From positions 3,030,001 to 3,062,000 of the forward strand of contig NZ_CP036280.1 in the NCBI RefSeq assembly GCF_007748075.1: a DNA stretch of 32,000 nt. The letters run 5' to 3'. The first letter of the stretch is position 1. Every line of letters begins with the position of its first letter. The position numbers and the translations under genes are program-made. Positions 10,230-28,141 of the stretch are shown one piece after another. The notes under the pieces were generated by a model. It made no database searches and was not told the origin of the DNA. It saw only the letters and a list, made by a program, of their open reading frames with translations. Source of the stretch: Mucisphaera calidilacus. GTDB taxonomy: Bacteria; Planctomycetota; Phycisphaerae; Phycisphaerales; Phycisphaeraceae.

Positions 10230-10249
10230 AGATTCGTGGTGCGATCCAA

Positions 10250-10338: not shown

Positions 10339-10362
10339 AAGGTGGCTTTCGCCAAGTCCAGC

Positions 10363-10391: not shown

Positions 10392-10412
10392 AACGGAGAT
10401 GATCGGACCCGG

Positions 10413-11084: not shown

Positions 11085-11096
11085 GAGAACCCCCGT

Positions 11097-11804
11097 TTAC
11101 GCGTTGGACCGGTGGAAGGCATCGATGACCGCGGTCCGGTCGTCCGAGCCGAAGAGCGCGGAGGCGGTGACCATGACGTCGACGCCATGGGCGGCCGCGT
11201 CCCGGCAGGTCTGCGTGTTGAGCCCGCCGTCCATCTCGATGCGCAGGTCGGGACCGGCGAGCTGGCGCAGGCCCGCGGCCTTGGGCAGCACCTCGGGCAT
11301 GAACTTCTGGCCCGAGCGCCCCGGATGAACACTCATGACCAGCACCATCTGGATGTCGCTGAGCACCGGCTCGATGACGCGCAGCGCGTCGTCAAGGCCG
11401 GTCGGCGGGTTGACGACCAGGCCCGCCTCGGCCCCGGCGTCGTGGACGCGTTTGATGAGGTCCTTCGCCTTGATGCCGCCCGAGACAAGCGGCTCACAGA
11501 CCTCGACGTGGAAGGTGAGCATGTTGGCGCCGGCAGCGGCGTAGTCCTCGACGTAGTCGCCGGGCCGTTCGACCATCAGGTGGACGTCGAGGTACGTGTC
11601 GGGCAGGTGCCGGCGGACGCCTCGGATCATGTCGACGCCCATGGTGAGGTTGGGCGCGAAGTGGCCGTCCATGACGTCCATGTGGAGCAGGTCGGCTCCG
11701 CGGCTCAGGACGTCGCGGCACTCCTCGGCCATGCGTCCGAAGTCGGCGGAGAGGATCGAGACCGACACCAGCGGGTGCGGCGGGTTGTCGCAGAGCTTGA
11801 GCAT
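11097..11804 (-). CDS. rpe: Ribulose-phosphate 3-epimerase
   Basis: 235-aa ORF with SILSADF, HMDVMDGHFAPNLT, DVHLMV, MSVHPGRSGQKF and IEMDGG, which is the canonical Rpe pattern. Confidence 0.9.
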   Translation of the reverse strand: MLKLCDNPPHPLVSVSILSADFGRMAEECRDVLSRGADLLHMDVMDGHFAPNLTMGVDMIRGVRRHLPDTYLDVHLMVERPGDYVEDYAAAGANMLTFHVEVCEPLVSGGIKAKDLIKRVHDAGAEAGLVVNPPTGLDDALRVIEPVLSDIQMVLVMSVHPGRSGQKFMPEVLPKAAGLRQLAGPDLRIEMDGGLNTQTCRDAAAHGVDVMVTASALFGSDDRTAVIDAFHRSNA

Positions 11805-11835
11805 GGGCCTAGTTTACGGGATCGCGAAACGCTCT

Positions 11836-12825: not shown

Positions 12826-12855
12826 GCGTGTCTCCGGGTTGGGAGGAACGATCGC

Positions 12856-14046
12856 TTATTTCTCGTCGAGCAGGTCGACGCTGTTGAAGGCCTTGCCCTC
12901 GAGCATCTCGAGGCTGGCGCCGCCGCCGGTGCTGACGTGAGAGACCTGGTCGGCGAAACCGAGCTGCTGGATGGCCGCGGCGCTGTCGCCCCCGCCGATG
13001 ATGCTGACCGAGTCGCTGTCGGCGACGGCCTTGGCGACGGCCTTGGTGCCCTCGTCGAAGGGCGGCATCTCGAAGACACCCATCGGGCCGTTCCAGACCA
13101 CGGTCTTGGCGGAGGTGACGAGGTCCGCGAAGAGCTTCGCGGTCTTGGGGCCGATGTCGAGCGCCATGTAGCCCTCGGCGGTGCCGTCGGCGGGGACAAT
13201 CTGCTTGTCGCAGTCGGCGCTGAAGGCGTCACCGGTGTGCGCATCGATCGGCAGCACGAGCTTGTCGCCGGCCTTCTCGATGAGCGACTTGGCCAGGTCA
13301 ACCTTGTCCGGCTCGACCATGCTCTTGCCGACGGAATAGCCCTGGGCGAGCGCGAAGGTGTTGGCCATGGCCCCGCCGATCAGGACCTTGTCGCAGACGG
13401 TGAGGAGGTTGTCGATGACGTTGATCTTGTCGGAGACCTTGGCGCCGCCGAGGATCGCGACGAAGGGCCGCTTGGGTTCGCCGATCGCCTCGCTGAGGTA
13501 CTGGATCTCCTTCTCGACGAGGAAGCCGCAGACGGCGGGCTTGCCGTCGGTCTTCATCGCGCGGGGCACTGCGACCATGGAGGCGTGGTCGCGGTGGCAG
13601 GTGCCGAAGGCGTCGTTGCAGTAAGCGTCGCCGAAGGAGGCGAGGACGGCCGCGAAGTCTTCGTCGCCCTTCTTCTCGGCCTTGGCAAACCGGAGGTTCT
13701 CCAGGAGCACCACGCCGCCGGCCTGGAGCGCCGCGACCTTGGCCTTGGCGTCGTCGCCGACGGTGTCGCTGGCGAAGACGACCTCGGAGCCAATCATCTC
13801 GCCCAGTCGCACAGCCGCAGGAGCAAGCGAGAACTCGGGCTCGGCGCCCTCGCCCTTGGGCCGTCCGAGGTGACTCATGAGCACGAGCGAGCCGCCACGG
13901 TCAAGCACCGACTTGATCGAGTCGAGCGCCATGCGGATACGCCGATCGTCCGTGATGGCGCCGTCCTTGAGCGGGACGTTGAAGTCCACGCGCATCAGAA
14001 CCTTCTTGCCTGCAACATCGATGTCCGTGATCGTCTTCTTCGCCAC
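12856..14046 (-). CDS. pgk: Phosphoglycerate kinase
   Basis: 396-aa ORF with [41 protein letters not shown] and GGGDSAAA, which is the canonical Pgk pattern. Confidence 0.95.
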
Positions 14047-14146
14047 AGCGCTATCCTCAGTGGTGGGGATGGAATTTCATTCTGAGCAGACTAACGTCTA
14101 CGCTCCCGGGGCATGACGCCCCATCAAACGATAGCTTAATCTGATC

Positions 14147-15355
14147 ATGACCCCACTGCACAACCATCTCAGTCAGCTCGGCGGCGAGTTCCTCACCTAC
14201 GGCCCGGACGAGGCCACCGCGGTCCGGATCCCCGATTCCTTCGGCGAATTCGAGGCCGAGTACGCGGCGATCCGCCGGCGCGTCGGCATCCTCGTGCTCG
14301 CGCAGCAGACCGTGCTCCAGGTCACCGGCGAAGACCGAAAAGACTTCCTGCACCGGCTGGTCACGCAGGAGATCAACGCGCTCGAGGGCGGGCAGACCAC
14401 GCGCTCGCTCCAGCTCGACACCAAGGGACGCGTGCTCGCCGACATGCTCGTGCATCACGGGCACCTCTGCACCTGGCTGGAGATGGACCGGTTCCACCTG
14501 CCGGCGGTGCGGGAGATCCTCGAACAGCGCTTGTTCACCGAGGACGTCGAACTGGAGCACCTCGACGACCGCGTGTTCATGGTCCTGATCGGCCCGGCAG
14601 CGCTGCAACTGCTCGCCGGCGTGGCGGAGCACACGGTCGAGACAATGACCGTCGAGTCGCTGGGCACGATGCCGCGCACCACGCACGTCCTGACCATCGA
14701 TGGCGTGAGGGTCTCGGCGACACGCTGGGACATGGCGGGTGAACTCGCGATCCGGCTGGCCGCGCCGTCAGACGATGCCGTGGCGGTCCACGAGAAACTG
14801 CTGGAGGCGGCGGGCTACGAGCCGGACACGGAACCGGACGCGGACTTCGCCGAGCGCCGGCGGGATTCGCTGCGCGGCCGACCGATCGGCTGGGCCGCCT
14901 ACAACACGGCCAGGATCGAAGCGGGCGAGGTGCTGTTCGGCGTCGACTTCGGCACCGACTGCCGCCCTGCCGAAGCAGGGTCGCGGGTGATGGATGAGAC
15001 CGTCTCGTTCACCAAGGGGTGCTACCTCGGGCAGGAGGTGGTGGCCCGGATGCACAACCTCGGCCATCCCAAGCGTCTGGCGGTCGGGCTGCGGATCGAC
15101 TCGGACCACCTGCCGGTCGCGGGGTCCCAGGTGCTCAAGGCCACCGACGACGGGCCGACACTCGACGTCATCGGCGCGATCACCTCGTCGACAACCTCGC
15201 CGCTGCAGGGCGGGACGACAGCGGCGATCGCCATGATGAAGTGGGGGCAGCACCGCCCGGGCACGAAGGTCTATGCGATCGAGGTGGGTGAGACGATCGA
15301 GGCGACGGTCACCGAGCCGGGTGTCGATGCGCTGAGGGACAAAACGACCACCTAG
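14147..15355 (+). CDS. ygfZ: Folate-binding protein YgfZ / GcvT-fold aminomethyltransferase-like protein
   Basis: 402-aa ORF. The C-terminal signature is FTKGCYLGQEVVARM (KGCYxGQE of YgfZ). The N-terminal part resembles the glycine-cleavage T-protein fold. Confidence 0.7.
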   Translation: MTPLHNHLSQLGGEFLTYGPDEATAVRIPDSFGEFEAEYAAIRRRVGILVLAQQTVLQVTGEDRKDFLHRLVTQEINALEGGQTTRSLQLDTKGRVLADMLVHHGHLCTWLEMDRFHLPAVREILEQRLFTEDVELEHLDDRVFMVLIGPAALQLLAGVAEHTVETMTVESLGTMPRTTHVLTIDGVRVSATRWDMAGELAIRLAAPSDDAVAVHEKLLEAAGYEPDTEPDADFAERRRDSLRGRPIGWAAYNTARIEAGEVLFGVDFGTDCRPAEAGSRVMDETVSFTKGCYLGQEVVARMHNLGHPKRLAVGLRIDSDHLPVAGSQVLKATDDGPTLDVIGAITSSTTSPLQGGTTAAIAMMKWGQHRPGTKVYAIEVGETIEATVTEPGVDALRDKTTT

Positions 15356-16107
15356 CGGCCCTCGAGGAGTCGCTGGCCGAGGAAGTCGGCGAGATCGGGG
15401 ATCTTCTCGATCTTGGCGACGACGGCGTCGATGTCGTACTCCGTGCGGTGGAAGGTCACGCGTTCGCCCTCGAGCACGGCATACGAGGCGCGGGGATCGC
15501 GGTCACGCGGCTGGCCGACCGACCCGGGGTTGATGACACACTTCTCCTCTTCCGAGAACTCGTACGTCCCCCCAAGGTCGCTGGGCGGGTAGAAATCGGG
15601 TTCATCGGTAAAGACGCCCGGGACGTGGGTGTGGCCCACGAGACAGGCGGTCTGGATGCGGTCAAAAATCTGCTGGACCTTCTGCGGGCTCGTGATCACG
15701 TCGTCGGGGAAGATGTACTCGTTGATCGGGCGTCGCGGCGAGGCGTGGACGCAGAGCATGTTCTCGAAGTCCTGCCGGATGCCGAGGTTGCCGAGAAACT
15801 CCCAGCGCTGGCGGCGCAGGGCGGTGTCCGGCTCGTTCTCCAGCTCGGCCCGGGTCCAGAAGGCGGCCGCCTCGGCGGTGGCGTTGAAACCGGTCGGCTC
15901 GTACAGAGCGGCAAAATCATGGTTGCCCATCAGTGCCCACGCACAGCGATCACGCACTAAGTCCAGACATTCACGAGGGTTAGGCCCGTATCCGATGATG
16001 TCCCCGAGGCAGATGATCTGCTCGATCCCCTTCTCCTCGATGTCGCTGAGCACGGCCATCAGGGCGTCCAGGTTGCCATGAATGTCAGAAATCAACGCGG
16101 TCGCCAT
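15352..16107 (-). CDS. Metallophosphoesterase-family protein (calcineurin-like phosphoesterase)
   Basis: 251-aa ORF with metallophosphoesterase motifs SDIHGN, LGDIIGYG, GNHD and VGHTHVPG. Its stop codon overlaps the ygfZ stop. Confidence 0.8.
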   Translation of the reverse strand: MATALISDIHGNLDALMAVLSDIEEKGIEQIICLGDIIGYGPNPRECLDLVRDRCAWALMGNHDFAALYEPTGFNATAEAAAFWTRAELENEPDTALRRQRWEFLGNLGIRQDFENMLCVHASPRRPINEYIFPDDVITSPQKVQQIFDRIQTACLVGHTHVPGVFTDEPDFYPPSDLGGTYEFSEEEKCVINPGSVGQPRDRDPRASYAVLEGERVTFHRTEYDIDAVVAKIEKIPDLADFLGQRLLEGR

Positions 16108-16235
16108 GAATGAGGCCCTGTCAGAAGAAGTGCTCCCCGCTCGAGTCGTCTAGAGAGTCTGAACATTTCTGTTCATCACGCAACTCTCCGCCCGTCAGGC
16201 CACCCGATCAGGAGCTATGGGTATATTCGGTCAAC

Positions 16236-17366
16236 ATGGCTGCAGGCGTTCAGGTTCCGGGCCCGACAGGCCCGCGTGACGGCGCACGATTGCTGATCGT
16301 GCGGCCCTCGGCGTTGGGCGACGTGGCCCGGACGGTGCCCGTCCTGGCGGCCCTGCGCGGCTCCTTCCCGAACGCATCGATCGACTGGCTGGTCCACCCG
16401 GCCTACGCCGACGCGATCCGCTGCCACCCGGACCTCCGCGAGGCGATCCCCTTCGACCGCAAGGGCATGTCGGGCTTCGGGCTGCGGCCGTCGGCAACCC
16501 GCAAGGGGCTGAGCCTCATCCGTCGGCTGCGCCGCGAGCGTTACGACCGGGTCTACGACCTGCAGGGCCTGGCGCGGAGCGGTTTCTTCACGTGGATGTC
16601 GGGGAGTCGGCACCGCGTCGGGTTCGCGGACGCCCGCGAGGGTGCCGCGTGGGGCTACAACCGTCGCCACCATGTGAACAAGGTCCATACTGTGGACCGG
16701 ATGCTCGGATTACTGGCAGCAGATGGCGTCGCGCTCCAGCAGGAGCCCGACCTGAGGCTCTACACGCCCGCCGAGGACCAGCGTTGGGCGGACAGCTATC
16801 TCGCGAAGCACGGCATCGACGCGGAACGGGGTTTCGTCTGCGTGGCGCCGACGGCGCAGTGGCGCTGCAAGTGGTGGCCTATGGATCGCTACGCCGCCTT
16901 GATCAACAGGATCGTCGCCGAGCCATGCTGCGGCGGGCGGGTGCTGGTGCTCGCGGCCCCGCACGAGTTCGACGAACTCCTGCCGCTTCGCGAGGCGCTG
17001 GATGCTCAAGCGGCCGGACGCGTCGACTTCCCCCCGACGGCGAGCGTCGGCCAGCTGATGGGGCTGCTCGGCCGCAGCGGCCTGGTCATCAGCAACGACT
17101 CGGCATCGCTTCACCTTGGCGTCGGGCTGGGGCGGCCGGTGGTCGGGGTCTTCGGGCCCACCGACCCGCGCCGCGTCGGGCCTTACGGGCATGACGACGC
17201 GGTCGTTCAACCCGATGCGGCCCGCGAGCCGGGTTTCACGTTCGACTACCGAAAACACCGCGACGACCAGAGCCTGATCGCGCAGATCCCGGTCGCGACG
17301 GTATGGTCAATGATTCTTCGCGTGGCGGGAACCTCGCCCGACCGTCAGACGTCTAAAGCCGTGTAA
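16236..17366 (+). CDS. Glycosyltransferase family 9 protein (LPS heptosyltransferase-like)
   Basis: The ORF track starts at 16110. The N-terminal 42 residues look non-coding (Cys/Ser-rich, lower GC). ATG 16236 precedes LLIVRPSALGDV, and the C-terminus has NDSASLHLGVGLGRPVVGVFGPTDP; both are typical GT9 patterns. TATATT lies at 16222-16227, so the mRNA may be nearly leaderless. Confidence 0.7.
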   Translation: MAAGVQVPGPTGPRDGARLLIVRPSALGDVARTVPVLAALRGSFPNASIDWLVHPAYADAIRCHPDLREAIPFDRKGMSGFGLRPSATRKGLSLIRRLRRERYDRVYDLQGLARSGFFTWMSGSRHRVGFADAREGAAWGYNRRHHVNKVHTVDRMLGLLAADGVALQQEPDLRLYTPAEDQRWADSYLAKHGIDAERGFVCVAPTAQWRCKWWPMDRYAALINRIVAEPCCGGRVLVLAAPHEFDELLPLREALDAQAAGRVDFPPTASVGQLMGLLGRSGLVISNDSASLHLGVGLGRPVVGVFGPTDPRRVGPYGHDDAVVQPDAAREPGFTFDYRKHRDDQSLIAQIPVATVWSMILRVAGTSPDRQTSKAV

Positions 17367-17392: not shown

Positions 17393-18715
17393 ATGAAACC
17401 CACTTTCGCCTGGCTGAAGATCATCATCGTTCTTGTCGTGTTTGTCCTGCTGATCGGCATCTTCCTGCCGAGTCTGGGAGCGGCTCGCAGACTCGCACCG
17501 GCCCATGAGTACAACATCTATGTCGGAGCGGGGATGCATGCAGCAGACGAAGCGGACCAGGCCAGGTCGAGGAGGCCCATGTCAGCGGGAGCTTATGGCA
17601 TCGAATCAGCGGGGATAGGTGTCGCCATGGGAAGAGCCTATGCCTCTGATGCGCCGGCCTCAGCGGCTCCGCCAGCATCGCTCAAGGCAGGCGACGTGGT
17701 GCAGGCGATGGAAGAGCAGTCGCAGCAGGACCCGGCCGCCGAGCGACAGGTGATCTACACCGGACGATTGATCATCGCGGTGGCGGACGTGCAAGCGGCG
17801 ATCGCCTTCGTGCGCGCTCAGGCCGAGTCGATGGGCGGGCACATGCAGAGCCTCCAGGGCGAGGGAATCACGGTGCGCGTGCCGGCGCAGCGGTTCGACA
17901 GCGTCATCGACCGCATCGAAGACCTGGGCGAGCTGCGTCACAAGAGCATCAACGCGCAGGACGTCACGCGCGAGTTCCAGGACACCGAGATCCAGCTCCG
18001 CACGGCGCGGACGTCCTACGACCGGCTGATCACCCTGCTGGAGCAGGCCGAGAAGACCGAGGACGTCATCGCGATCGAGAAGGAGCTGCGTCGGCTCAAG
18101 ACCGAGATCGACCGGATCGAGACGCGCCGTCGCTACCTCAAGGACCAGGTCGCGCTGGCCACGCTGACCGTCACCTTCAACGCCAAGGTCCCGCAGCAGC
18201 CGACCGAGAAGCCGATCCCGATCCGGTGGCTCTCGGAGCTGGCTTTTGAATTGCTCAACCCGCAGGCCCCGCCGCCCATGAACGACATCTTCCGTGCGGG
18301 CGTGACCTTCGACCTGCCCGAGAACTTCGTCCGTCATTACCAGGAGGGCTACGTGACGATGGCGATGGCGCCGGGCGAGGTCGGCCTCAAGGTGATCCGC
18401 CACAACAACTACGACGAGGGCCCGCTCGAGTTCTGGCTCAGCCTCGTGCGGGACACGCTCATCGACCGCCATGGCGTGCCCGTCGGCGAGCCGATGACCG
18501 AGCACCTCAACGGACGCTGGTGGGGCAAGAGCTCGACCGAGGTGGCGGTTCTCGAGGGCACCAAGACAGTCGCAGCGGAACCGCACGGCTACATCGTCGG
18601 CATCATCGCGGCCGATCGCCACGTCTACACCTACGAGGCGTGGGGACCCGAGGCAGCGCTGGCGACGCACAGGGACGCCATCATCGAGTCGATGATGACG
18701 CTGCGTGCCCGCTGA
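17393..18715 (+). CDS. DUF4349-like membrane-anchored protein with an extra C-terminal domain
   Basis: 440-aa ORF with GGAG upstream and one N-terminal TM helix (LKIIIVLVVFVLLIGIFLPSLGAARR). The central region (QVIYTGRLIIAV...VRVPAQRFDSVIDRIEDLGEL...INAQDVTREFQDTEIQLRTART...LEQAEKTEDVIAIEKEL...L ATLTVTF) has the pattern I associate with DUF4349. About 170 further residues are unassigned. Confidence 0.6.
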   Translation: MKPTFAWLKIIIVLVVFVLLIGIFLPSLGAARRLAPAHEYNIYVGAGMHAADEADQARSRRPMSAGAYGIESAGIGVAMGRAYASDAPASAAPPASLKAGDVVQAMEEQSQQDPAAERQVIYTGRLIIAVADVQAAIAFVRAQAESMGGHMQSLQGEGITVRVPAQRFDSVIDRIEDLGELRHKSINAQDVTREFQDTEIQLRTARTSYDRLITLLEQAEKTEDVIAIEKELRRLKTEIDRIETRRRYLKDQVALATLTVTFNAKVPQQPTEKPIPIRWLSELAFELLNPQAPPPMNDIFRAGVTFDLPENFVRHYQEGYVTMAMAPGEVGLKVIRHNNYDEGPLEFWLSLVRDTLIDRHGVPVGEPMTEHLNGRWWGKSSTEVAVLEGTKTVAAEPHGYIVGIIAADRHVYTYEAWGPEAALATHRDAIIESMMTLRAR

Positions 18716-19683
18716 TGGCCCTGATCTGCGGCATCGACGAAGCCGGATACGGCCCGCTGCTCGGCCCGCTGACGCTGGCACGCGTGGCACTCGAAGTCCC
18801 CGAGCCGGACGCCGACCCGTGGTCGCTGCTCGACAAGGCGGTGAGCCGGACACTCGGCAAGCGCAAGGGACGGCTGGTCGTCAACGACTCGAAGAAGCTC
18901 AACGTGCGCTCGGTGGGCGTGGTGCACCTCGAGACGAGTTGCCTGGCCTTCGCGGGTGCGGCGGATCGCGACACGACAGACGTCGGCCTGTTCTTCGACG
19001 GCCTGCACGAGACCAGCCACCGCCAACTCGATCACCTGCCCTGGTACGCGCCGACGCAGGAGCAGCCCTGGCAGCCGCTGCCGACCGCGCTGACCGAAGG
19101 CGAACTGGCGATCGCCCGGTCGATGCTGCGAACCGCGATGGCTTCGGCTGGCATCAGCGTGCGGGACATGGCCGTGTCGCTGGTCTTCGAGGACGCGTTC
19201 AACGACCTCGTCCGCAAGACCCACTCCAAGGCATCGGCCAGCTTCACCTACGTCGCCCGCCACCTGATGGCAATCTGGCGCGACCTCGGCCAAGAGCAAC
19301 CCGTCGTCGTGATCGACCGCCAGTCGGGGCGGACCCGCTACCGGGAGCTGATCGCGATGCTGCTGCCCGACGCGACCATCCGGGTGCTCGACGAGTCGCC
19401 CGAGCGCTCGGCGTATCACGTCCGTGAGGGCGATCGATCGATGACGCTCGGCTTCGAGACCAAGGCCGACGGCAACCACTTCCCGGTGGCGTTGGCCTCG
19501 ATGCTGGCCAAGTACAGCCGGGAGCTGATGATGGAGCGGCTCAACGGCTGGTTCACGCGTCAGCTGCCCGACCTGACCCCGACGGCGGGGTACGCGGTCG
19601 ACGGCCGACGCTTTGTGAACGACATCACGCCTCACCTCCCCGCCATGGGCATCGAGACCAACCAGATCTGCCGGATCGCTTGA
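18715..19683 (+). CDS. Divergent ribonuclease HII-family protein (expanded, 322 aa)
   Basis: The ORF track starts at 18520. ATG 18715 (MALICGIDEAGYGPL) overlaps the upstream TGA by 1 nt. All four RNase HII landmark segments are present: GIDEAGYGPLLGPL (DE), VNDSKKL (D), VVVIDRQSG (D), and KADGNHFPVALASMLAKYSRE. There are about 180 residues between the DSKK and ID motifs, versus roughly 60 in E. coli RnhB as I recall it. Confidence 0.6.
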   Translation: MALICGIDEAGYGPLLGPLTLARVALEVPEPDADPWSLLDKAVSRTLGKRKGRLVVNDSKKLNVRSVGVVHLETSCLAFAGAADRDTTDVGLFFDGLHETSHRQLDHLPWYAPTQEQPWQPLPTALTEGELAIARSMLRTAMASAGISVRDMAVSLVFEDAFNDLVRKTHSKASASFTYVARHLMAIWRDLGQEQPVVVIDRQSGRTRYRELIAMLLPDATIRVLDESPERSAYHVREGDRSMTLGFETKADGNHFPVALASMLAKYSRELMMERLNGWFTRQLPDLTPTAGYAVDGRRFVNDITPHLPAMGIETNQICRIA

Positions 19684-19701
19684 GCCAACCCCGCGCCTTG
19701 A
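19684..19701 (+). repeat. Left copy of a perfect 18-bp direct repeat GCCAACCCCGCGCCTTGA
   Basis: Identical 18-mer at 19684-19701 and 21174-21191. The left copy begins immediately after the TGA of the RNase HII-like gene. Confidence 0.9.
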
Positions 19702-19720
19702 TCCAGGTAGCGATCCTTAA

Positions 19721-19746
19721 ATTCTCAATTTAAGACAATTTGATAA
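19721..19746 (+). repeat. 26-bp direct repeat, copy 1 (ATTCTCAATTTAAGACAATTTGATAA)
   Basis: Matches copy 2 at 22/26 positions. Overlaps a perfect inverted repeat TTAAATT-ctc-AATTTAA (19717-19733). Confidence 0.75.
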
Positions 19747-19812
19747 CTCATTGTTAACCAAGACCTCAATTAGGGCCTCTGTGCGGCCTTCTACGCCATT
19801 CAATCTTGATTT

Positions 19813-19838
19813 ATTCTCAATTATAGTTAATTTGATAA
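19813..19838 (+). repeat. 26-bp direct repeat, copy 2 (ATTCTCAATTATAGTTAATTTGATAA), overlapping a TATAGT -10-like hexamer
   Basis: Starts 92 bp after copy 1 starts and ends 3 nt before the fic ATG. Contains TATAGT at 19822-19827. Confidence 0.75.
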
Positions 19839-19841
19839 TAA

Positions 19842-21191
19842 ATGAGGATTCCAAAACGACCACCCCGTGACGCTATTGCCAAGTATCTCGATGCCTTGTT
19901 CCGGCACGAGACGGCTGACCTGAAGGCATGGCCGCGACAAGCGGCTTTCTTGCGGGACACCGAAGACGCCTATCGCCACTGGGACAAGGTGCGGATCCTG
20001 GCCCGGGCCGAGGGTCTGGACCCTGAGATCACGTGGGGCGAGATCGTTGCCTCGAGAAGCCCGCGTCTTCAACCGGTTCAACTGCATGGCCACGGGAACA
20101 AGCCACTCCAGTACCTCATCCCCAATCGTCTTCAGCAGGAACTGATGCTGATCGATCAGCAACTCGCCGGACAACTCACCACCCGTGATGAACAGCCGCT
20201 CTCGGTGCGAGACAAGGAACGCTTCATCGTCCGTGCTCTGCATGAAGAGGCCATCACGTCCAGTATGCTCGAGGGGGCTGCCACCACGCGACGCGAAGCG
20301 AAAGACATGCTGCGCCGGCAGCGCAAACCGCGCAACCGAGGCGAGCAGATGGTTCTGAACAACTATCAGGCCATCGAATTTGCGCGCGACCACCTTGACC
20401 ACAGTCTCACCCCTGAGTTACTGCTTGAACTCCAGACCATCCTCACCCGAGACACGCTCGATCGGCCTGATGAAGTCGGCCGGTTTCGCCGGCGGGATGA
20501 CGTTATCCATGTCGAGGATCGACGCGATAACGAGATCATCCATACACCACCCGATGCCGTAGAACTCCCGCAGCGCCTTGAGCGGTTGTGTGCCTTCGCC
20601 AATGCCGGCAACGACACGCGTCGATTCATCCACCCGGTGATTCGGGCCTCCATCCTCCATTTCCAGATCGGCTTTGATCACCCCTTCTGTGACGGCAACG
20701 GACGAACCGCGCGCACGCTCTTCTACTGGCTGATGCTACGCCACGGCTACTGGCTCTTTGAATATCTCCCGATCTCCAGGCTGATCTACCGGGCTCCGGC
20801 CCGTTACGTCAGGGCGTATCTCTATTGTGAGACCGACGACTTCGACGTTACATACTTCCTCATGTACACCGCCGAGGTGATCCGCAAAGCTCGTGAAGAA
20901 CTGCAGACCTACATCGAGCACAAGATGAAGCAGTCGAGGGACGCTCAACACATCTACCGCGATGACAGCCGGCTCAATCACCGGCAGCGTGAAGCGATCA
21001 GGCTGATCACCACGAATCCTGCGAGGGTGCTGACGATCGCCGAGCATCAGGAACGGCATCAGATCGTAAACGCCACCGCACGCACCGACTTGCTGAAACT
21101 CGCCGAATGGGGCTATCTCACCCGGGAGCGGATCGGGCGACGCTTCGAGTTCCTCACAGGACCCCGACTCATCGCCAACCCCGCGCCTTGA
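19842..21191 (+). CDS. Fic-family protein (AMPylase-type Fic/DOC fold) with an N-terminal inhibitory motif and a C-terminal winged-helix-like region
   Basis: 449-aa ORF. Canonical Fic motif HPFCDGNGRTAR (20679-20714). An upstream SSMLEG matches the (S/T)xxxE(G/N) inhibitory motif (20259-20276). The C-terminal segment RQREAIRLI...LTIAEHQERHQIVNATARTDLLKLAEWGYLTRERIGRRFEF looks like a wHTH. The last six codons and the stop lie in the right direct repeat. Confidence 0.85.
   Translation: MRIPKRPPRDAIAKYLDALFRHETADLKAWPRQAAFLRDTEDAYRHWDKVRILARAEGLDPEITWGEIVASRSPRLQPVQLHGHGNKPLQYLIPNRLQQELMLIDQQLAGQLTTRDEQPLSVRDKERFIVRALHEEAITSSMLEGAATTRREAKDMLRRQRKPRNRGEQMVLNNYQAIEFARDHLDHSLTPELLLELQTILTRDTLDRPDEVGRFRRRDDVIHVEDRRDNEIIHTPPDAVELPQRLERLCAFANAGNDTRRFIHPVIRASILHFQIGFDHPFCDGNGRTARTLFYWLMLRHGYWLFEYLPISRLIYRAPARYVRAYLYCETDDFDVTYFLMYTAEVIRKAREELQTYIEHKMKQSRDAQHIYRDDSRLNHRQREAIRLITTNPARVLTIAEHQERHQIVNATARTDLLKLAEWGYLTRERIGRRFEFLTGPRLIANPAP
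21174..21191 (+). repeat. Right copy of the perfect 18-bp direct repeat GCCAACCCCGCGCCTTGA
   Basis: Identical to 19684-19701. Encodes ANPAP-stop of fic, and its terminal TTGA forms part of the TTGAAA -35 element of the tRNA-Glu promoter. Confidence 0.9.
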
Positions 21192-21215
21192 AACCCCCTC
21201 CGGCCTCCCTATAAT
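21188..21215 (+). promoter_or_regulatory. Near-consensus sigma70-type promoter for tRNA-Glu (TTGAAA-16 nt-TATAAT)
   Basis: TTGAAA at 21188-21193, 16-nt spacer, perfect TATAAT at 21210-21215, ending 12 nt upstream of the tRNA 5' end. Confidence 0.55.
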
Positions 21216-21227
21216 CACCGATTCGAC

Positions 21228-21300
21228 GCCCCGTTCGTCTAGTGGCCTAGGACATCGCCCTCTCACGGCGACGACATGGGTTCAAATCCCATACGGGGTA
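21228..21300 (+). tRNA. tRNA-Glu (anticodon CTC)
   Basis: GCCCCGT-TC-GTCTAGTGGCCTAGGAC-A-TCGCC-CTCTCAC-GGCGA-CGAC-ATGGG-TTCAAAT-CCCAT-ACGGGGT-A. The D-arm is almost identical to E. coli tRNA-Glu, and the anticodon loop is CU-CUC-AC. Position 1:72 would be a G:U pair. CCA is not encoded. Confidence 0.9.
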
Positions 21301-21350
21301 TTTCCCTTGAACAACCCATCCGACGACACCCGCAAGGTAGAGTGACGCGC

Positions 21351-22448
21351 ATGAGATACGCCCTCATTATCGCCGGCGGCTCCGGCACCCGCCTCTGGCC
21401 GATGTCGACCCGGGACCTGCCCAAGCAGCTGATCCCGCTGTTTGGCGGCAAGTCACTCCTCGAACTCGCCGTCGAACGCCTGCTGGGGCTGGTGGGTGCC
21501 GAGAACCTCTACGTCTGTGCCGGCTCGTCCATGCGTGACGTCATGCTCCGGACGATCCCGAGCCTCTCAGCGGACAACTTCATCGCCGAGCCGATGGGCC
21601 GCGACACCCTCAACGCGATCGCCCTGAGCTGCGCGGTCCTCCGCAGGCAGGACCCCGACGCGACCGTCGGCGTCTTCACGGCGGATCAACTCATCGAGCC
21701 GGTCGAAACCTTCCAGCAGATCGTGGAGCAGGGATTCAGCGTCGCGGAGGCGGCCGACGACCTGCTCGTGACCTTCGGCGTCGAGCCGACCCACCCCGCC
21801 ACGGGCTACGGCTATCTCGAACTCACCGACAAGCTCCCCGAAAGCGACGCGGCCAGCCTCGTGGGCACCTTCAAAGAGAAGCCCGACCTCGAGACGGCCA
21901 GGACCTACCTCGCGGCGAAAGACCGCTTCCTCTGGAACTCGGGGATGTTCGTCTGGAAGGCAGAGACCCTGCTGCGTGCCGTCGAGCAGTTCGCGCCGGA
22001 GAACCACGGGCCGATCCTCGAACTCGCCGAGAGCTGGGGCACCGAGGCATGGGAGGAGCTCGCGAACACGATCTACCCGACGCTCAAGAAGATCAGCATC
22101 GACTTCGCCGTCATGGAGCCGGCCTCGCGTGCGCCCGACTACCGTGTCGCGGCCATCCCCTCGCCCTTCCGCTGGCTCGACGTCGGGAGTTGGCCGAGCT
22201 ACCAGACCACGCTCGATCCGGATGATGCCAACAACACCTCATCCGGCTGCCCGAACACCCTGCTCGACTGTAAGAACACGCTGGTCGCCTCGGACGACCC
22301 GGACCACCTGGTCGCTGCGATCGGCCTGGAAGACGTCATCATCGTGCGCACGGCCAAGGCCACGCTGGTCTGCAGGGCACAGGACGCCGAACGCATCAAG
22401 CAGCTCCACGCGGCCGTCGGTGAGCAGCACGGCGACGCCTACCTCTGA
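21351..22448 (+). CDS. manC: Mannose-1-phosphate guanylyltransferase (NTP-transferase domain only, no PMI domain)
   Basis: The ORF track starts at 21276, inside the tRNA. ATG 21351 gives MRYALIIAGGSGTRLWPMSTRDLPKQL (GGxGxRLWPxS). Downstream segments are typical of GDP-mannose pyrophosphorylases: FTADQLI, GYGYLE, FKEKPD, WNSGMFVW, SIDFAVME. Confidence 0.8.
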   Translation: MRYALIIAGGSGTRLWPMSTRDLPKQLIPLFGGKSLLELAVERLLGLVGAENLYVCAGSSMRDVMLRTIPSLSADNFIAEPMGRDTLNAIALSCAVLRRQDPDATVGVFTADQLIEPVETFQQIVEQGFSVAEAADDLLVTFGVEPTHPATGYGYLELTDKLPESDAASLVGTFKEKPDLETARTYLAAKDRFLWNSGMFVWKAETLLRAVEQFAPENHGPILELAESWGTEAWEELANTIYPTLKKISIDFAVMEPASRAPDYRVAAIPSPFRWLDVGSWPSYQTTLDPDDANNTSSGCPNTLLDCKNTLVASDDPDHLVAAIGLEDVIIVRTAKATLVCRAQDAERIKQLHAAVGEQHGDAYL

Positions 22449-22861
22449 TGAAGCGCTACCTGGCGATCGATCCGGGCGGGAAACGCACCGGCCTGGCCCT
22501 GGGCGACGACCTCACCAAGCTCGCCTCGCCACTCGACGTCATCCAGACTGCGAGCCCGACCGAACGACTCCGGCAGATACGCGATGCCATCGAACGCGAG
22601 CAGCCCGACGAGCTGGTGCTGGGTCTGCCGCTCAACATGGACGGCAGCGAAGGGCCCGCGGCCAAGGCGGCTCGTCTGTTCGCCGATGAGCTGCGCGAAG
22701 CGACACAACTTGAGGTCCACCTCGCCGATGAGCGTTTGACCTCGGACGTCGCCGATCAGCAGATGGCACGCACGGGGCTGACACACAAGCAGAAAAAACA
22801 GCTGCGCGACGCACTCGCCGCTGCGACGCTGCTGCAGGATTTTCTTAATCAGTCCGCCTAG
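22448..22861 (+). CDS. ruvX: Holliday-junction resolvase-like nuclease RuvX (YqgF family)
   Basis: 137-aa ORF with YLAIDPGGKRTGLALGD and LGLPLNMDGSEGP (YqgF pattern). The ATG overlaps the manC TGA by 1 nt. Confidence 0.85.
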   Translation: MKRYLAIDPGGKRTGLALGDDLTKLASPLDVIQTASPTERLRQIRDAIEREQPDELVLGLPLNMDGSEGPAAKAARLFADELREATQLEVHLADERLTSDVADQQMARTGLTHKQKKQLRDALAAATLLQDFLNQSA

Positions 22862-24321
22862 AAAACCATCGCGTAGGCCAGGAAGCACAAACCCATGAAG
22901 GCGTTGGCCAGGCCGATGTAGCCGATGATCGCCTTGACCTCCTCGGGCAGCTTGCGTGCCGGCCAGCTCACGACCGAACAAGCCTTGCGCAGCGACACGA
23001 GCATGCGTCCGAGCCGCGTCTTGGGAGGCTCTTCGACCGGCTCGTCACCGGACGCCGAAGCATCGGCTCTTGAGGCAGCAGCAGCCGGGGCCTTCTCGTC
23101 GGTCTCCAGCTCGGCATCAACGTCCTCACCCGACGCCATCATCGCGTCCATCTCGGCGAGCGCGTGCTCCTCGTCGGTCTTGGGCGCCTCCTCCGCGACG
23201 ACCCCCTCGGCCTCATCCTCCGCGACTTCCTCGACGGCTTCGGGTTCTTCAGGCTCAGGCTCGGCAGCCGCCTCCGGCTCCGCAACCTCACCCTCCGACT
23301 GCACCGCCTCGACCGTGTCGAAGTCACCCTCCAGCTCGACCTCGTCGTAGTTGACCGATTCGAGGTCCGCCGCCTGCCGGCTCTCGGGCCGACTCGACCC
23401 GGAGCTGAGTTCTTCCTCAAGCCGCTCGATGTCGGCGGTCACCTCGGCCACCGATCCCGATTCCTCGGTCGCCAGCTCGGCCTCAGCGACCTCGGCGATG
23501 GCCGCGTCGATCGCTTCGAGCGCCGCCTCATCGGGATCCGCTGCGTCGGGCTCCGCGACGGCCTCCGCCTCAGCCCGCGACTCGGCCTCCTGCGCCACCA
23601 GCGCCTCCGACGCGGCATCCACGTCGTCCGCCTCGATCGCCGTGTCGGGCTGAACGGGCAGAGCGGCCTCCGCCTCTTCCTGCTCCAGATCACTGACCTC
23701 GGCCATGACGTCGTCGATCGCACGCGCGAGATCGTCCATGTCTTCGGTCGGTCCGGTCGACATGCTCGACGACAAGTCCGCCGCGGCCTGCCTGCGTGCC
23801 GCCGTCTCAGGCGTCTCGGGCTGCGCGGGCGACTCGTCCGTCGCGAGATCATCCAACACCGATTCAAGGTCCGCGACCCAACCCGGCTGTTCGTCGGGCG
23901 TGGCGGGTTCCGCCTCGTTCTCGGCGGCAACGGGTTCTGGAGAAACTTCTTTGGTCACGATATCCCCCGGAGCTTCCTGACGGTCTTCAACGGGCTGGGT
24001 GTCGGCCTCGGCCGCCGGCTCCTGAGCGGTCGCCTGCTCGATGTGTTCTTCAACAGCCTGCTGCGTGAGGGCGTCGGAAGCAGCGTCGTCCACGCCGACA
24101 TCCGAAACCGGCTGGTCTTCTTCGGGCCGCTTGGGCTTGCGGTCCGGGAAGGTGCCGGGCGCGGTCAGTTCGATCTGGTCCAGCAGCGACTCGAGCTGCT
24201 GATCGAGTTCGAACGGATCGGGTGCCTCCGGCTTGCTGGGCGGGTTGGGTTCGCTCACGATCCTTTCGCTCACATCCAATCCGGTTCGCCAGCCCGCGCA
24301 CAACTTCAGGCTTGCCAACAC
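22858..24321 (-). CDS. Hypothetical highly acidic, low-complexity protein with a single C-terminal transmembrane anchor
   Basis: 487-aa ORF. About 400 residues are dominated by E, A, D, P, V and T with very few basic residues. A basic patch follows (KTRLGRMLVSLRKACSVVSWPARKLPEEVK), then a terminal hydrophobic helix AIIGYIGLANAFMGLCFLAYAMVF. The start is uncertain: ATG 24321, or in-frame GTGs at 24273 and 24258. The antisense frame gives only R/G/L-rich junk. Confidence 0.55.
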   Translation of the reverse strand: MLASLKLCAGWRTGLDVSERIVSEPNPPSKPEAPDPFELDQQLESLLDQIELTAPGTFPDRKPKRPEEDQPVSDVGVDDAASDALTQQAVEEHIEQATAQEPAAEADTQPVEDRQEAPGDIVTKEVSPEPVAAENEAEPATPDEQPGWVADLESVLDDLATDESPAQPETPETAARRQAAADLSSSMSTGPTEDMDDLARAIDDVMAEVSDLEQEEAEAALPVQPDTAIEADDVDAASEALVAQEAESRAEAEAVAEPDAADPDEAALEAIDAAIAEVAEAELATEESGSVAEVTADIERLEEELSSGSSRPESRQAADLESVNYDEVELEGDFDTVEAVQSEGEVAEPEAAAEPEPEEPEAVEEVAEDEAEGVVAEEAPKTDEEHALAEMDAMMASGEDVDAELETDEKAPAAAASRADASASGDEPVEEPPKTRLGRMLVSLRKACSVVSWPARKLPEEVKAIIGYIGLANAFMGLCFLAYAMVF

Positions 24322-24409
24322 GCCGCCGATGCTTGATGCTCAGCGGCACGAGGCGGGTTACGCGCCGCCTCACATCCTGACGATCGACGCCCAGGCAGAG
24401 GCGACTACA

Positions 24410-25225
24410 GTGACCAACCACGAGGTCCGAGAGAATCGGCCCCCACAGCACGCAGACGGCGATCACGCCTTACCCCGATTCTACGCACCGTCGCTGCCGA
24501 CACCGAATCATGCTGATCCGGTCGAGATCGAACTTGACCCCGAGGAGGCCCGGCACGCGGTCAAGGCTCGCCGGCTTCAACCCGGTTCACCCGTCGAGCT
24601 GATCGACGGACTGGGCCACCGGTCGCTGGCCGCCATCCTCCACGCCGACGGCAGGCGGGTCACGGCCCGGATTGAACAGACGCTGACCCACCCCGAGCCG
24701 TCGCCGCGCATCACCGTCGCCAGCGCCCTGCCCAAGGGCTCGCGGACCGAAGACCTGATCGACATGCTCGTCCAGACCGGGGCCTCGGCATGGGTGCCGC
24801 TCGACACCGAACACGCGGTCGTTCGACCCGACGAACGCAGGCGCAGCCGCTGGGAACGACGCGCCCTGGCGGGCCTCAAGCAGTCCCGCAGGCTGCACCG
24901 GCTGGAGATAAAACGCGTCACACACCCCGACGATCTGGCGGGCTGGACGCAGCCGGTTCGGCTGCTGGCCGACGCTGCGCATGGCGTTCACAAAACCGCT
25001 AAAACACACGCTCAGGAGATCGCGGTCGCGATTGGGCCTGAGGGGGGATGGTCCCAGCGTGAACGGTCGCTCCTGCTCGATGCCGGATGGTTGTCGTGGT
25101 CACTCGGCGACTCTGTCATGAGAGTCGAGACCGCTGCCGCCGTCGCCTCGGCACTGCTCAGGTATCTCAACACAGGCTCGTCTGACGCGCCAGCAGACGA
25201 CGCCACAGCGAGCACCCTGCTATGA
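24410..25225 (+). CDS. rsmE: 16S rRNA (uracil1498-N3)-methyltransferase RsmE
   Basis: The ORF track starts at 24233, overlapping the divergent gene. The RsmE pattern begins at LPRFYAP, and IGPEGGWS and MRVETAA follow near the C-terminus. I chose GTG 24410 (GAGG 9 nt upstream). ATG 24329 is the alternative. Confidence 0.7.
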   Translation: MTNHEVRENRPPQHADGDHALPRFYAPSLPTPNHADPVEIELDPEEARHAVKARRLQPGSPVELIDGLGHRSLAAILHADGRRVTARIEQTLTHPEPSPRITVASALPKGSRTEDLIDMLVQTGASAWVPLDTEHAVVRPDERRRSRWERRALAGLKQSRRLHRLEIKRVTHPDDLAGWTQPVRLLADAAHGVHKTAKTHAQEIAVAIGPEGGWSQRERSLLLDAGWLSWSLGDSVMRVETAAAVASALLRYLNTGSSDAPADDATASTLL

Positions 25226-25956
25226 ACCATCCCCAGCAGCCCCCCTTCGAACCGGTCGTCCTGCGTGAACGCGGGGCCAATGACGCGACCTCGGACCGGA
25301 GGCTGTTCGTTCAGTTCTACGCTGCCACCACGCGGCCCGGGGCCGAGAGCCCGACATCGGTCGCCCTCACCCCCGCCCTGCGTGACCAGCGGATCGATGC
25401 CGTGCTCTACGAGGACGCTCGCGACCCGCGCGGCTTCGGGGTGGCGTTCGCCTCCGAAGACCCTCACCAGATCATCGAGGCGGCACGCACGCTCTTCGTC
25501 CAGCCCGCCTGGATCGCCTTGGAGATCCTGCCGGACTACACCATGCTCGGGCGGAGCTACAGCCTCGGCTACGAGACCGACATCGAGGACACCCTGATAC
25601 ACCGGCCGCTGCGCCACCTGCTCGACCCCGACTGGCCCTGGGCGATCTGGTACCCGCTCCGGCGATCCGGTGCGTTCGAAACGCTGCCTCAGGACCAGAA
25701 GCGGAAGATCCTCGGCGAGCACGCCAGGATCGGCATGGACTGGGGACGAAGCGGGCTGGCCCGGGACATCCGACTCGCCTGCCACGGGCTGGGCGGCGCC
25801 GACAACGACTTCGTGATCGGCCTGTTCGGCAGGGACCTCTTCCCCCTCTCCGCGCTGATCGCCCGCATGCGTTCGACCGAACAGACCTCGCAGTATCTCG
25901 AACAACTCGGCCCCTTCTTCGCGGGTCGTGCCGTCTGGCGGTCGACGAACACCTGA
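25222..25956 (+). CDS. Chlorite dismutase-family protein (Cld/HemQ-like)
   Basis: 244-aa ORF. The segment WYPLRRSGAFETLPQDQKRKILGEHARIG ... FVIGLFGRDLFPLSALIARMRSTEQTSQY follows the chlorite-dismutase-family pattern (proximal His in EHARIG). The ATG overlaps the rsmE TGA (ATGA). Confidence 0.6.
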   Translation: MNHPQQPPFEPVVLRERGANDATSDRRLFVQFYAATTRPGAESPTSVALTPALRDQRIDAVLYEDARDPRGFGVAFASEDPHQIIEAARTLFVQPAWIALEILPDYTMLGRSYSLGYETDIEDTLIHRPLRHLLDPDWPWAIWYPLRRSGAFETLPQDQKRKILGEHARIGMDWGRSGLARDIRLACHGLGGADNDFVIGLFGRDLFPLSALIARMRSTEQTSQYLEQLGPFFAGRAVWRSTNT

Positions 25957-26002
25957 TGGGCGTTAAAATCCAGTCCCAGCACCCCAGCGAAGAAAGCAAA
26001 CC

Positions 26003-27463
26003 ATGATCGAGACCACCAGCGAGCAGTACACCCAGGCCCTTGAGACCCTCAAGAGCATCGGGCAGGAGCACGTCCTGGCCAGTTTCGATCAGCTCGACGC
26101 GGGACAGCAGGCCGCTCTGCTCGCCGAGATCGCCTCGGTCGACTGGCAGGAGGTCCACCGGCTGATCGGGACCCACGTCCTCGACAAGCCCACCTTCGAG
26201 CTGCCGACCGACATCGAGCCGGCCCCGTGGTTCCCCAACGTGCCCACCGCGGGCGAGCAGGAGTCCTACTACCACACCGCCACCGAGGTCGGCCGGGCCA
26301 TGATCGCCGCCGGCAAGGTCGCCGCCTTCACCGTCGCGGGCGGCCAGGGCACGCGCCTGGGCTGGGACGGGCCCAAGGGAACCTTCCCCGCCACCCCGAT
26401 CCGACACCTGCCGCTCTTCGGCTGCTTCGCCGAGTACATCCGCGCCTGCGAGGCACGCTTCGGCGTGACCATCCGCTGGTACATCATGACCTCGCCCGCC
26501 AACGACACCGACACCCGCGAGTTCCTCACCCGACACCAGTTCTTCGGACTCGACCCGGCCCAGGTCATGATCTTCCCGCAGGGCATGATGCCCGCCGTCG
26601 ATCCGAGCACCGGCAAGGTGCTCATGGCCTCCAAGGGCTCCATCGCCCTGTCGCCCAACGGCCACGGCGGCTCCCTCAAGGCCCTCGAGACCTCCGGCGC
26701 GCTCAAGGACATGGAGAAGCACGGCATCGAGCACATCAGCTACACGCAGGTCGACAACCCCATCGTCCGCGTCCTCGACCCCGTCTTCCTCGGCCTCCAC
26801 GCCATCTCGGGCAGCCAGATGTCCTCCAAGATGCTGCCCAAGGCCTACCCCACCGAAAAACTCGGCAACTTCTGCTTCGTCGACGGACGCATGACCATCA
26901 TCGAGTACTCCGACCTCCCCGACGAACTGGCCTACGAGACACTCGAAAACGGCGAGCTGCGCTTCCGCGCCGGCTCCATCGCGATCCACGCCATCCGCCG
27001 GGACTTCGTCGAAAACCTCAACCGCACCGCCGGGGGCTTCGCCCTGCCCTACCACCGGGCCAACAAGAAGGTCCCCTTCTACGACCCGAAGACCGACACC
27101 CAGGTCAAGCCCGACGAGCCGAACGCCGTCAAACTCGAGACCTTCGTCTTCGACGCCCTGCCGCTCTGCAGCACCTCGATCGTCTACGAGACCGAACGCG
27201 TCGACGAGTTCGCGCCCATCAAGAACGCCGACACTCCCGCCGGCGACGAGCCGGCCAACGACAGCCCCGAGACGAGCCGCAACATCCAGACCGAGCGTGC
27301 CGCCCGCTGGCTCTCGGAGCTGGGCGTCCACATCCCCCGCCGCGAAGACGGCACCGTCGATGCCGCCATCGAGATCAGCCAGATCACCGCGATCTACAAG
27401 GAAGACCTCGACCGCTCGTCGCTGCCTGATCACATCCGCCCCGGGCAGGAACTGCTGCTCTGA
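26003..27463 (+). CDS. UDP-sugar pyrophosphorylase of the UDPGP/UAP1 (eukaryotic-type) family
   Basis: 486-aa ORF with FTVAGGQGTRLGWDGPKGTFP, SPNGHGG and YTQVDNP, landmark motifs of the UTP--glucose-1-phosphate / UDP-N-acetylhexosamine pyrophosphorylase family. Confidence 0.75.
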   Translation: MIETTSEQYTQALETLKSIGQEHVLASFDQLDAGQQAALLAEIASVDWQEVHRLIGTHVLDKPTFELPTDIEPAPWFPNVPTAGEQESYYHTATEVGRAMIAAGKVAAFTVAGGQGTRLGWDGPKGTFPATPIRHLPLFGCFAEYIRACEARFGVTIRWYIMTSPANDTDTREFLTRHQFFGLDPAQVMIFPQGMMPAVDPSTGKVLMASKGSIALSPNGHGGSLKALETSGALKDMEKHGIEHISYTQVDNPIVRVLDPVFLGLHAISGSQMSSKMLPKAYPTEKLGNFCFVDGRMTIIEYSDLPDELAYETLENGELRFRAGSIAIHAIRRDFVENLNRTAGGFALPYHRANKKVPFYDPKTDTQVKPDEPNAVKLETFVFDALPLCSTSIVYETERVDEFAPIKNADTPAGDEPANDSPETSRNIQTERAARWLSELGVHIPRREDGTVDAAIEISQITAIYKEDLDRSSLPDHIRPGQELLL

Positions 27464-27469
27464 TCCGAA

Positions 27470-28141
27470 TCAGGCCGTCACCAGCAGCACCGCGAACATC
27501 GAGATCCAGACCGCGTCCAGGAAGTGCCAGTACATGGCCAGGTGCTTGACCGGCGCGTGATGCTCGTGGTCGTATTTCCGCTTGTGCGCATCACGCGTCA
27601 CGATCGCCAGCGGCACGACGCCGCCGATCACGTGTAAAGCGTGGATGAGGATCAGCACAAACACCGCTCCGTAGAGGGGATTGGTCGAGGTCGTATCGGC
27701 CGCCGCCATCTGCCCGTTGGCCACCGCCTGACGCTGGGCGATCGCGTCCCAGTGGTCGCCCAGCAACGCGAGCAGGCTCGGCGTCTGCACCAGCAGGAAG
27801 ACCACCGCAAGACCGAGCGTCGCCCACATCGCCCTGCAGAAGGCCTCCTGGCGCTCGAGGCGGATGTGCGTCAGCGCCCGGTGGATCGTGAAGCTCGAGA
27901 GCAGAATCACCGCCGTCGAAACCCACAGCCCGACCGGGATGGTCATCGAGCCCCACGGCGGACCGGCCGGCGGGATCGGCTCGCCCGTGATGTAGTTGGT
28001 CTTCTCCAGCATCCCGTTGACCCGGATGATGGTGTAGGCCAGCATCGAGGCCGCGAACAGCATGCCCAGCGAGATGAGGAAGAGCCACATCCCGAAATCA
28101 CCGGCCTTCTTGGGAACGTGCGGGGTCGAAACGGCTGTCAC
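27470..28141 (-). CDS. Heme-copper oxidase subunit III-family protein (short paralog)
   Basis: 223-aa ORF with a GTG start and GGAGG 6 nt upstream. It is multi-TM, has LIHALHVIGG, and has the C-terminal signature LAMYWHFLDAVWISMF (YWHFVDxVW). Confidence 0.8.
   Translation of the reverse strand: MTAVSTPHVPKKAGDFGMWLFLISLGMLFAASMLAYTIIRVNGMLEKTNYITGEPIPPAGPPWGSMTIPVGLWVSTAVILLSSFTIHRALTHIRLERQEAFCRAMWATLGLAVVFLLVQTPSLLALLGDHWDAIAQRQAVANGQMAAADTTSTNPLYGAVFVLILIHALHVIGGVVPLAIVTRDAHKRKYDHEHHAPVKHLAMYWHFLDAVWISMFAVLLVTA

Follow-up and report, generated by a model that had tools for sequence, protein, structure and literature searches.

The DNA analyzed here is a 32-kb stretch of the Mucisphaera calidilacus genome (referred to below as the window, with positions counted from its first letter), in which a lone fic gene sits between an RNase HII-like gene and a gene for tRNA-Glu(CTC) and is bracketed by two perfect copies of an 18-bp sequence. 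All features described for the window lie on the plus strand. The left host flank is formed by the RNase HII-like gene (18715-19683; 322 amino acids [aa]; Pfam RNase_HII, 1.9e-13), which ends with a TGA stop codon at 19681-19683. The left copy of the repeat, GCCAACCCCGCGCCTTGA (19684-19701), begins 1 base past this stop and is followed by an AT-rich leader of 140 nt (19702-19841; 34% G+C) and by the fic open reading frame (ORF; 19842-21191; 449 aa). The right copy (21174-21191) constitutes the end of this ORF, where it encodes ANPAP plus the stop codon, and its final four bases, TTGA, open the promoter TTGAAA-16 nt-TATAAT (21188-21215). This promoter was the sole promoter-like match between 19500 and 21400 and lies upstream of the tRNA-Glu(CTC) gene (21228-21300; Rfam tRNA, 60.8 bits), the right host flank. 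The tRNA gene is untouched by the repeat, which ends 36 nt 5' of it (21191 versus 21228) and contains no tRNA sequence. An initial annotation, made from the letters of this DNA, had placed the 18-mer at these two positions, with the left copy directly behind the RNase HII-like stop and the right copy providing the TTGA of the tRNA-Glu -35 box; an exact match search, the ORF calls, and the promoter search agree with it on all three points. It had also assigned the last six codons and the stop of fic to the right copy. The shared end and stop are confirmed, but the codon count needs correction to five sense codons plus the stop.

The 18-mer is present exactly twice in the window, and no further match was found elsewhere in the 32 kb when up to 3 mismatches were allowed. 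In a set of 100 dinucleotide-preserving shuffles, two or more matches were never obtained (0/100). When the two junction regions were compared by sensitive local alignment, exactly 18 nt proved to be shared, with no extension on either side. The repeat is host-like in composition (72% G+C), and no dyad symmetry was detected in it by inspection. Background exact repeats at about 60 comparable loci reach 14 nt at most, with G+C-rich repeats of 10-14 nt being common. A phage-borne or free form of the module was considered and rejected, as neither the 18-mer nor the repeat motif of the leader described below was found in a search of IMG/VR.

Uninterrupted versions of this locus are found in three relatives. 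Orthologous RNase HII-like genes, with 54-71% identity at the protein level, lie directly upstream of tRNA-Glu in a Mucisphaera sp. metagenome-assembled genome (MAG) designated L001 (69% identity), a Phycisphaeraceae MAG (L096; 71%), and a more distant contig (L097; 54%). At all three, the RNase HII-like stop is followed by a short spacer and tRNA-Glu(CTC) with nothing in between, both fic and its leader being absent. The spacer from stop to tRNA measures 54 nt in L001, 48 nt in L096, and 57 nt in L097. When 19702-21191 is removed from the window, a 54-nt spacer is left that aligns end to end with those of the relatives, and the -35 and -10 boxes then line up; the empty site of about 54 nt implied by the initial annotation is thus real. 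The position of the promoter is kept at the empty sites as well (TTGGAA-17-TATACT in L096 and CTGGAC-17-TATAAT in L001). In the alignment, the left copy of the 18-mer falls opposite the initial 18 nt of the empty spacer and is homologous to them, with 11 of 18 positions identical in the closest relative and no possible alignment in L096. Judging from these spacers, the target is host sequence that is not conserved among the relatives.

The DNA between the repeats differs in composition from its surroundings. Compared with the 23 other genes of the window, fic is low in overall G+C (0.595 versus 0.665 ± 0.021, z = -3.4), in G+C at third codon positions (GC3; 0.711 versus 0.881 ± 0.043, z = -3.9, the lowest of all), and in a leave-one-out codon index resembling the codon adaptation index (CAI; 0.49 versus 0.71 ± 0.07, z = -3.0). 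These statistics support the earlier suggestion that fic differs from the host genes. Related fic loci were also surveyed, the sample comprising about 65 distinct loci (69 leaders in the palindrome count given below) and 80 neighboring control genes. In nearly all of the high-G+C hosts among them, fic is lower in G+C than its flanks, so that low G+C is characteristic of the module itself and says little about when it arrived.

The segment 19702-21191 is a horizontally acquired, self-contained one-gene module made up of 1,472 unique bp plus one copy of the repeat. Its insertion took place only in the Mucisphaera calidilacus lineage and interrupted the 54-nt spacer that separates the RNase HII-like gene from tRNA-Glu(CTC), with 18 nt of host spacer now present at each end. 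Thanks to the right copy, the tRNA promoter is still intact, and the same copy fortuitously provides the last five codons and the stop of fic. The three empty sites and the composition thus uphold the proposal that foreign DNA was inserted in this lineage alone and that precisely 18 bp were duplicated at the junctions, and we consider the insertion itself, together with the nature of its cargo, to be established with high confidence.

The fic product matches the Pfam Fic family with 66.6 bits (3.6e-18; cut-off, 24). It contains the catalytic motif HxFx(D/E)GNGRxxR (HPFCDGNGRTAR, residues 280-291). On the N-terminal side of the Fic core, the same polypeptide has the inhibitory motif (S/T)xxxE(G/N) in the form S140-S-M-L-E144-G145. 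The catalytic motif is invariant in 28 homologues, as are S140, E144, and G145. The presence of the catalytic motif with an inhibitory motif upstream of it assigns the protein to the class II, auto-inhibited Fic AMP-transferases. The PADLOC profile for SoFic (PDLC03963) was matched with E = 3.1e-44 over positions 34-345 of 361, whereas the NCBIfam equivalog model for SoFic (NF046030) returned 53.5 bits versus a cut-off of 550. The protein is a distant relative of SoFic and not an orthologue. An AlphaFold2 (AF2) model with a predicted local distance difference test (pLDDT) score of 88 includes a C-terminal winged helix (helices 399-406 and 410-422, strands 426-431 and 434-439). The top Foldseek hits of this model were the SoFic structures 3ZCN and 3EQX (E about 1e-11 over ~355 columns), and further matches included 4RGL (Dde_2494) and 7XUX (CccR), the latter likewise over ~355 columns. 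The extra N-terminal ~110 residues (window 19842-20170), which are absent from SoFic, were modelled as a second winged-helix-like unit, with helices 47-56 and 61-75 and a beta hairpin (strands 77-82 and 88-91). In the public annotation, the protein is 413 aa long and starts 36 codons further downstream, leaving out window positions 19842-19949. Because homologues of ~445 aa align from residue 1, with a conserved MRxPxxPP, we take the ATG at 19842 as the fic start; the annotated start is probably too short.

Based on these motifs and the model, the cargo is predicted to belong to the SoFic anti-phage defense type of class II, auto-inhibited Fic AMP-transferases. SoFic, the Shewanella oneidensis type, is a single-gene abortive-infection defense protein that AMPylates its targets (PMC12249575). 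The window protein resembles it in the HxFx(D/E)GNGRxxR core, the N-terminal inhibitory helix, the C-terminal winged helix, and the occurrence as a lone gene. It differs in the N-terminal extension of ~110 residues and in its overall identity of only about 19-20%. Moreover, the fic stop lies within the repeat beside the tRNA promoter, so that, unlike at the SoFic locus, there is no room downstream for an AS1-like antitoxin gene (PMC12249575). Relatives of the Fic protein are present on 18 plasmids and in 3 phage records. The possibility that the closest homologues represent second copies of the same element was rejected: the nearest is only 62% identical, and L002, L003, and L005 have no flanking repeats. 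A 1.8-kb contig with a near Fic homologue (L105) contributes only an operator leader.

The leader of the module contains two operator-like palindromes. The 26-bp leader repeats mentioned in the initial annotation were located at 19721-19746 and 19813-19838, and each is an imperfect palindrome of the form TTCTCAA-N11-TTGATAA. The first of them constitutes the operator-like repeat O1 (19721-19746), whose layout of two 7-nt half-sites around 11 nt recurs in related leaders. The second is contained in a larger palindrome, O2 (19802-19850), which has 19-nt arms (19802-19820 and 19832-19850; 84% complementary) around an 11-nt spacer and covers the start codon of fic. Of the 69 distinct related loci, 34 have a perfect 7-nt inverted repeat with an 11-nt spacer in the 200 nt that precede fic, compared with 1.1 expected from shuffled sequences, and none was found inside the related fic ORFs. 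The layout is usually present in two copies per leader (for example, L002 5880-5965, L003 5900-5990, and L065 1005-1100), and the half-sites vary from locus to locus (CTATCAA, CTACTAA, CTCCTAA, ATACTTG, GTATTAA, and others). Similar palindromes occur in about half of the related leaders, whatever flanks fic. On these grounds, the leader repeats are more readily read as palindromic operators of the Fic protein than as arm sites for a recombinase. A structured RNA in the leader was considered and rejected: apart from the tRNA, no credible Rfam match was found in 18500-22500.

An experimental precedent for such a role is CccR, a Fic protein with a C-terminal helix-turn-helix (HTH) domain that represses its own promoter through a palindrome (PMC9755527). 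The window protein shares with CccR of Yersinia pseudotuberculosis (7XUX) the order of a Fic domain followed by a DNA-binding domain, with both a sequence and a fold hit, and its leader carries two palindromes for which an operator role is predicted. On the other hand, CccR is an effector secreted by a type VI secretion system (T6SS), is encoded in a T6SS locus, and targets FtsZ, while the window fic has no secretion context. By analogy, the Fic protein is probably an autorepressor that binds the two predicted operators, one of which lies over the start codon, with a winged-helix domain that could be either of the two modelled units. The locus-specific half-sites predict that each Fic protein recognizes its own leader, and this would let the gene work wherever it lands.

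Flanking repeats scoring at least 30 bits were detected at about 10 of the ~65 distinct fic loci, compared with 3 of the 80 control genes. Their origins are mixed, and repeats flanking fic were therefore rejected as a general rule, with no single mechanism claimed: they represent paralogous coding pieces in L060 and L012/L014, a second operator copy in the L040 group, hairpin pieces in L048 and L087, and an att array in L081. In L040-L047, a 43-nt operator palindrome, ATCGAGA-N11-TCTCGAT, is repeated right after the fic stop (L043 3814-3856 and 5197-5239, for example), and a tyrosine integrase and an AbiEi gene are located just upstream. In L065, a low-G+C fic islet lies between the two copies of a 92-nt repeat (829-920 and 2520-2611; 98% identical) that could form internal hairpins, and 23 nt separate the end of the right copy from the next gene. 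Another group of loci (L031, L036, L048, L051, L055, L057, L058, L060, L063, L064, L066, L068, L075, and L087) has fic DNA that is 77-96% identical. The identity is confined to the stretch from approximately the operator palindrome through the stop codon, and the flanks are mostly unrelated. Such sharp homology limits may reflect tight element ends or selection on the functional unit only.

As for the route by which the module entered the spacer, we slightly favor att-type integration (probability about 0.45) by a recombinase that was lost or acted in trans, the product being an element resembling a cis-mobilizable element (CIME). The 18-bp repeat would then be the attL/attR pair of a conservative site-specific integration, and the recombinase would have been lost from the islet or never been part of it, making the islet a decayed or trans-mobilized element. 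CIMEs are elements that retain attL and attR and have lost the genes for integration (PMC5704250). Support for this route comes from related fic units in att-type settings. One of these is L081, where a 40-nt repeat, corresponding to the last 12 codons plus stop of a ComM/YifB-like gene, is present in four direct copies (453-492, 1593-1632, 3283-3322, and 4945-4984) that separate small integrase-less units, fic among them; to judge from the sequence, this looks like a tandem cassette array at one att site. The fic gene lies between tRNA-Met and integrase fragments in L012/L014, and it is adjoined by a tyrosine integrase in L043. In L099, from a 5-Mb genome, the fic islet is flanked by a 137-nt repeat (4735-4875 and 6397-6535; 90% identical) whose left copy is frameshifted; the repeat includes the promoter of the SpoU/TrmH-like gene that follows and about 35 codons from the beginning of this gene. 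The called start of this SpoU/TrmH-like gene (6546) is probably ~110 nt too far downstream. The length of the window repeat also fits, as 18 bp is typical of an att identity block and longer than the duplications made by known transposases.

Several observations weigh against att-type integration. No integrase or transposase is encoded in the islet, fic being the only gene between the repeats, and a Pfam scan of 20 other window genes revealed no recombinase or mobility gene. The 18-mer lacks the dyad symmetry expected at the crossover site of a tyrosine recombinase, does not overlap the tRNA gene, and corresponds to a stretch of spacer too poorly conserved to make a good site-specific target. 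Its perfection, sharp edges, and host-like composition are what a de novo duplication of host sequence predicts. No flanking repeats were found around the three closest Fic homologues (51-57% identity; L002, L003, and L005), and the mixed origin of the repeats at other family loci, detailed above, points the same way. A tRNA gene lies within 600 nt of fic at no more than 4 of 65 related loci; tRNA targeting was rejected as a trait of the fic family on this count, and the tRNA is probably a bystander whose adjacency looks incidental. Thus, where the initial annotation proposed an att-type duplication beside a tRNA gene, the 18-bp junction duplication stands, but an att function of the repeat and a role of the tRNA as target are not established. 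Its statement that the islet has no integrase, transposase, or terminal inverted repeats was confirmed by the ORF and Pfam scans and a repeat search, and any of the origins it listed (mobilization in trans, a decayed remnant, or an undescribed mechanism) may apply.

The properties of the repeat that sit poorly with an att site fit better with a target duplication generated at the time of insertion, in which the spacer was cut with an 18-nt stagger or by two nicks at a distance of 18 nt, the module was joined, and the gaps were filled. The agent could be a transposase-like or casposase-like enzyme acting in trans, or end-joining repair that captured a foreign fragment. We regard this scenario as the main rival, somewhat less probable than att-type integration. 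It accounts for a perfect, sharply bounded repeat without dyad symmetry whose G+C content (72%) contrasts with that of the leader (34%) and fic (59.5%), and for a spacer that returns to exactly its conserved length of 54 nt upon removal of the module; with a target sequence that is not conserved, an incoming element is unlikely to have brought a matching 18-mer with it. The lengths of the repeats vary across loci, as a non-site-specific process would give, and in four cases the duplication comprises the 5' region of a co-directional downstream gene (window, 18 nt; L074, 26 nt; L065, 92 nt; L099, 137 nt). The longer of these (92-137 nt) nevertheless exceed what an enzymatic stagger could produce, and the repeats of the relatives are imperfect (88-98%) and, in L081, clearly att-like. 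Terminal inverted repeats are missing from the islet, and the scan of window genes revealed no transposase; none of the bacterial systems described is known to leave a duplication of 18 bp when such repeats are absent. A range of 18-137 nt would fit a homology-driven or replication-based insertion, which gives a host-like direct duplication of arbitrary length with no enzyme from the element. This could take the form of a Campbell-type single crossover with a circularized fragment carrying fic and the same piece of spacer from a sister lineage, or of template switching, with the polymerase jumping to foreign DNA and back and copying the 18 nt a second time. The 90%-identical copies in L099 would fit recombination between diverged homologues. 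For the window, however, 18 nt is less than RecA-dependent recombination usually needs, and the Campbell route merely transfers a pre-existing insertion of a sister lineage, of which none is known, all three relatives being empty. We therefore consider insertion of this kind unlikely.

Less likely still is an undescribed route by which SoFic-type fic genes with their operator leaders would travel as integrase-less single-gene cassettes and duplicate a variable stretch of the target. Such a route would keep the neighbor functional, the stretch duplicated in the four cases above being either regulatory sequence 5' of the next gene or the 5' end of that gene. Finally, it is highly improbable that the repeat is coincidental, or that fic is ancestral and was precisely lost from the relatives. 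G+C-rich repeats of 10-14 nt are indeed common background at these loci, but the shuffles gave no second copy of the 18-mer, background exact repeats at comparable loci do not exceed 14 nt, and the two copies stand exactly at both compositional boundaries. An ancestral fic is hard to reconcile with three uninterrupted relatives, with a window spacer that equals the 54 nt of L001 once the islet is taken out, and with the status of fic as the compositional outlier of the window.

The islet can be compared with known mobile elements. Like a CIME, it is a small unit bounded by direct repeats and devoid of integration or transfer genes (PMC5704250); the difference is that its repeat is not located in a conserved gene end or a tRNA, that the att role is putative, and that it has no known parent element or cognate integrase. 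As in islands of tRNA-targeting integrases, foreign DNA is found beside a tRNA gene with direct repeats at both ends and empty sites in relatives, yet here the repeat lies in the promoter, whereas that of such islands includes part of the tRNA gene (usually the 3' end), and the islet lacks an integrase. It shares direct target duplication at both ends with transposons, miniature inverted-repeat transposable elements (MITEs), mobile insertion cassettes, and casposons, and a cargo without an enzyme of its own with cassettes mobilized in trans. Usual target duplications measure 2-15 bp and those of casposons 14-15 bp, so that 18 bp exceeds both, and the Pfam scan of 20 other window genes detected neither a transposase nor Cas1. 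A transposon of the DDE (Asp-Asp-Glu) type, a MITE, or a mobile insertion cassette was rejected because the ends of the islet, TCCAGGTAGCG... and ...CCCGACTCATC, are unrelated and do not form terminal inverted repeats. An integron gene cassette was rejected as well, since by inspection the 18-mer is non-palindromic and there are no RYYYAAC ... GTTRRRY attC cores, and the module has a long leader of its own. An integrative mobile element exploiting Xer (IMEX) was likewise dismissed, as neither a dif-like 28-bp site, even when 3 mismatches were tolerated, nor a XerD-arm motif was found in the window.

The islet is a real, precisely bounded, and lineage-specific insertion of a SoFic-type defense module with its own predicted operators. 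Its kind is already known, that of a small genomic islet carrying a defense gene, but this one is unusually clean; it serves as a clean example rather than a new principle and does not overturn current views. Only the insertion route holds real potential for novelty. Defense genes move often, and the route is obscure for many small islets. Here, the site is resolved to the base both in its occupied state and in three empty versions, and the occupied one is in a cultured strain, Pan265, which makes questions of excision, recombinase, and duplication testable.

Other features of the region were noted. The plus-strand GC skew is +0.105 over positions 1-17000 and -0.114 over 19700-28000, regardless of gene orientation, and returns to about 0 past 28 kb. 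The cumulative G-C curve peaks at ~17.9 kb, 2 kb from the islet. The switch near 17.9 kb could mark a replication terminus, with the qualification that the window contains no dif-like motif. On the 3' side of tRNA-Glu, L001 (7196-7822) and L096 (5176-5799) have a CMD-family (carboxymuconolactone decarboxylase-like) gene between the tRNA and a ManC-like gene. It is missing from the window (21301-21350), which constitutes a second difference in gene content at this tRNA. The RNase HII-like protein is matched by Pfam RNase_HII only in a short piece at either end (residues 2-63 and 243-296), and the long region between the two has no match. Proteins of this form are widespread (2,141 hits at E ≤ 1e-30), and the few with a named source among the 120 matches listed were all from Phycisphaerae or other Planctomycetota.

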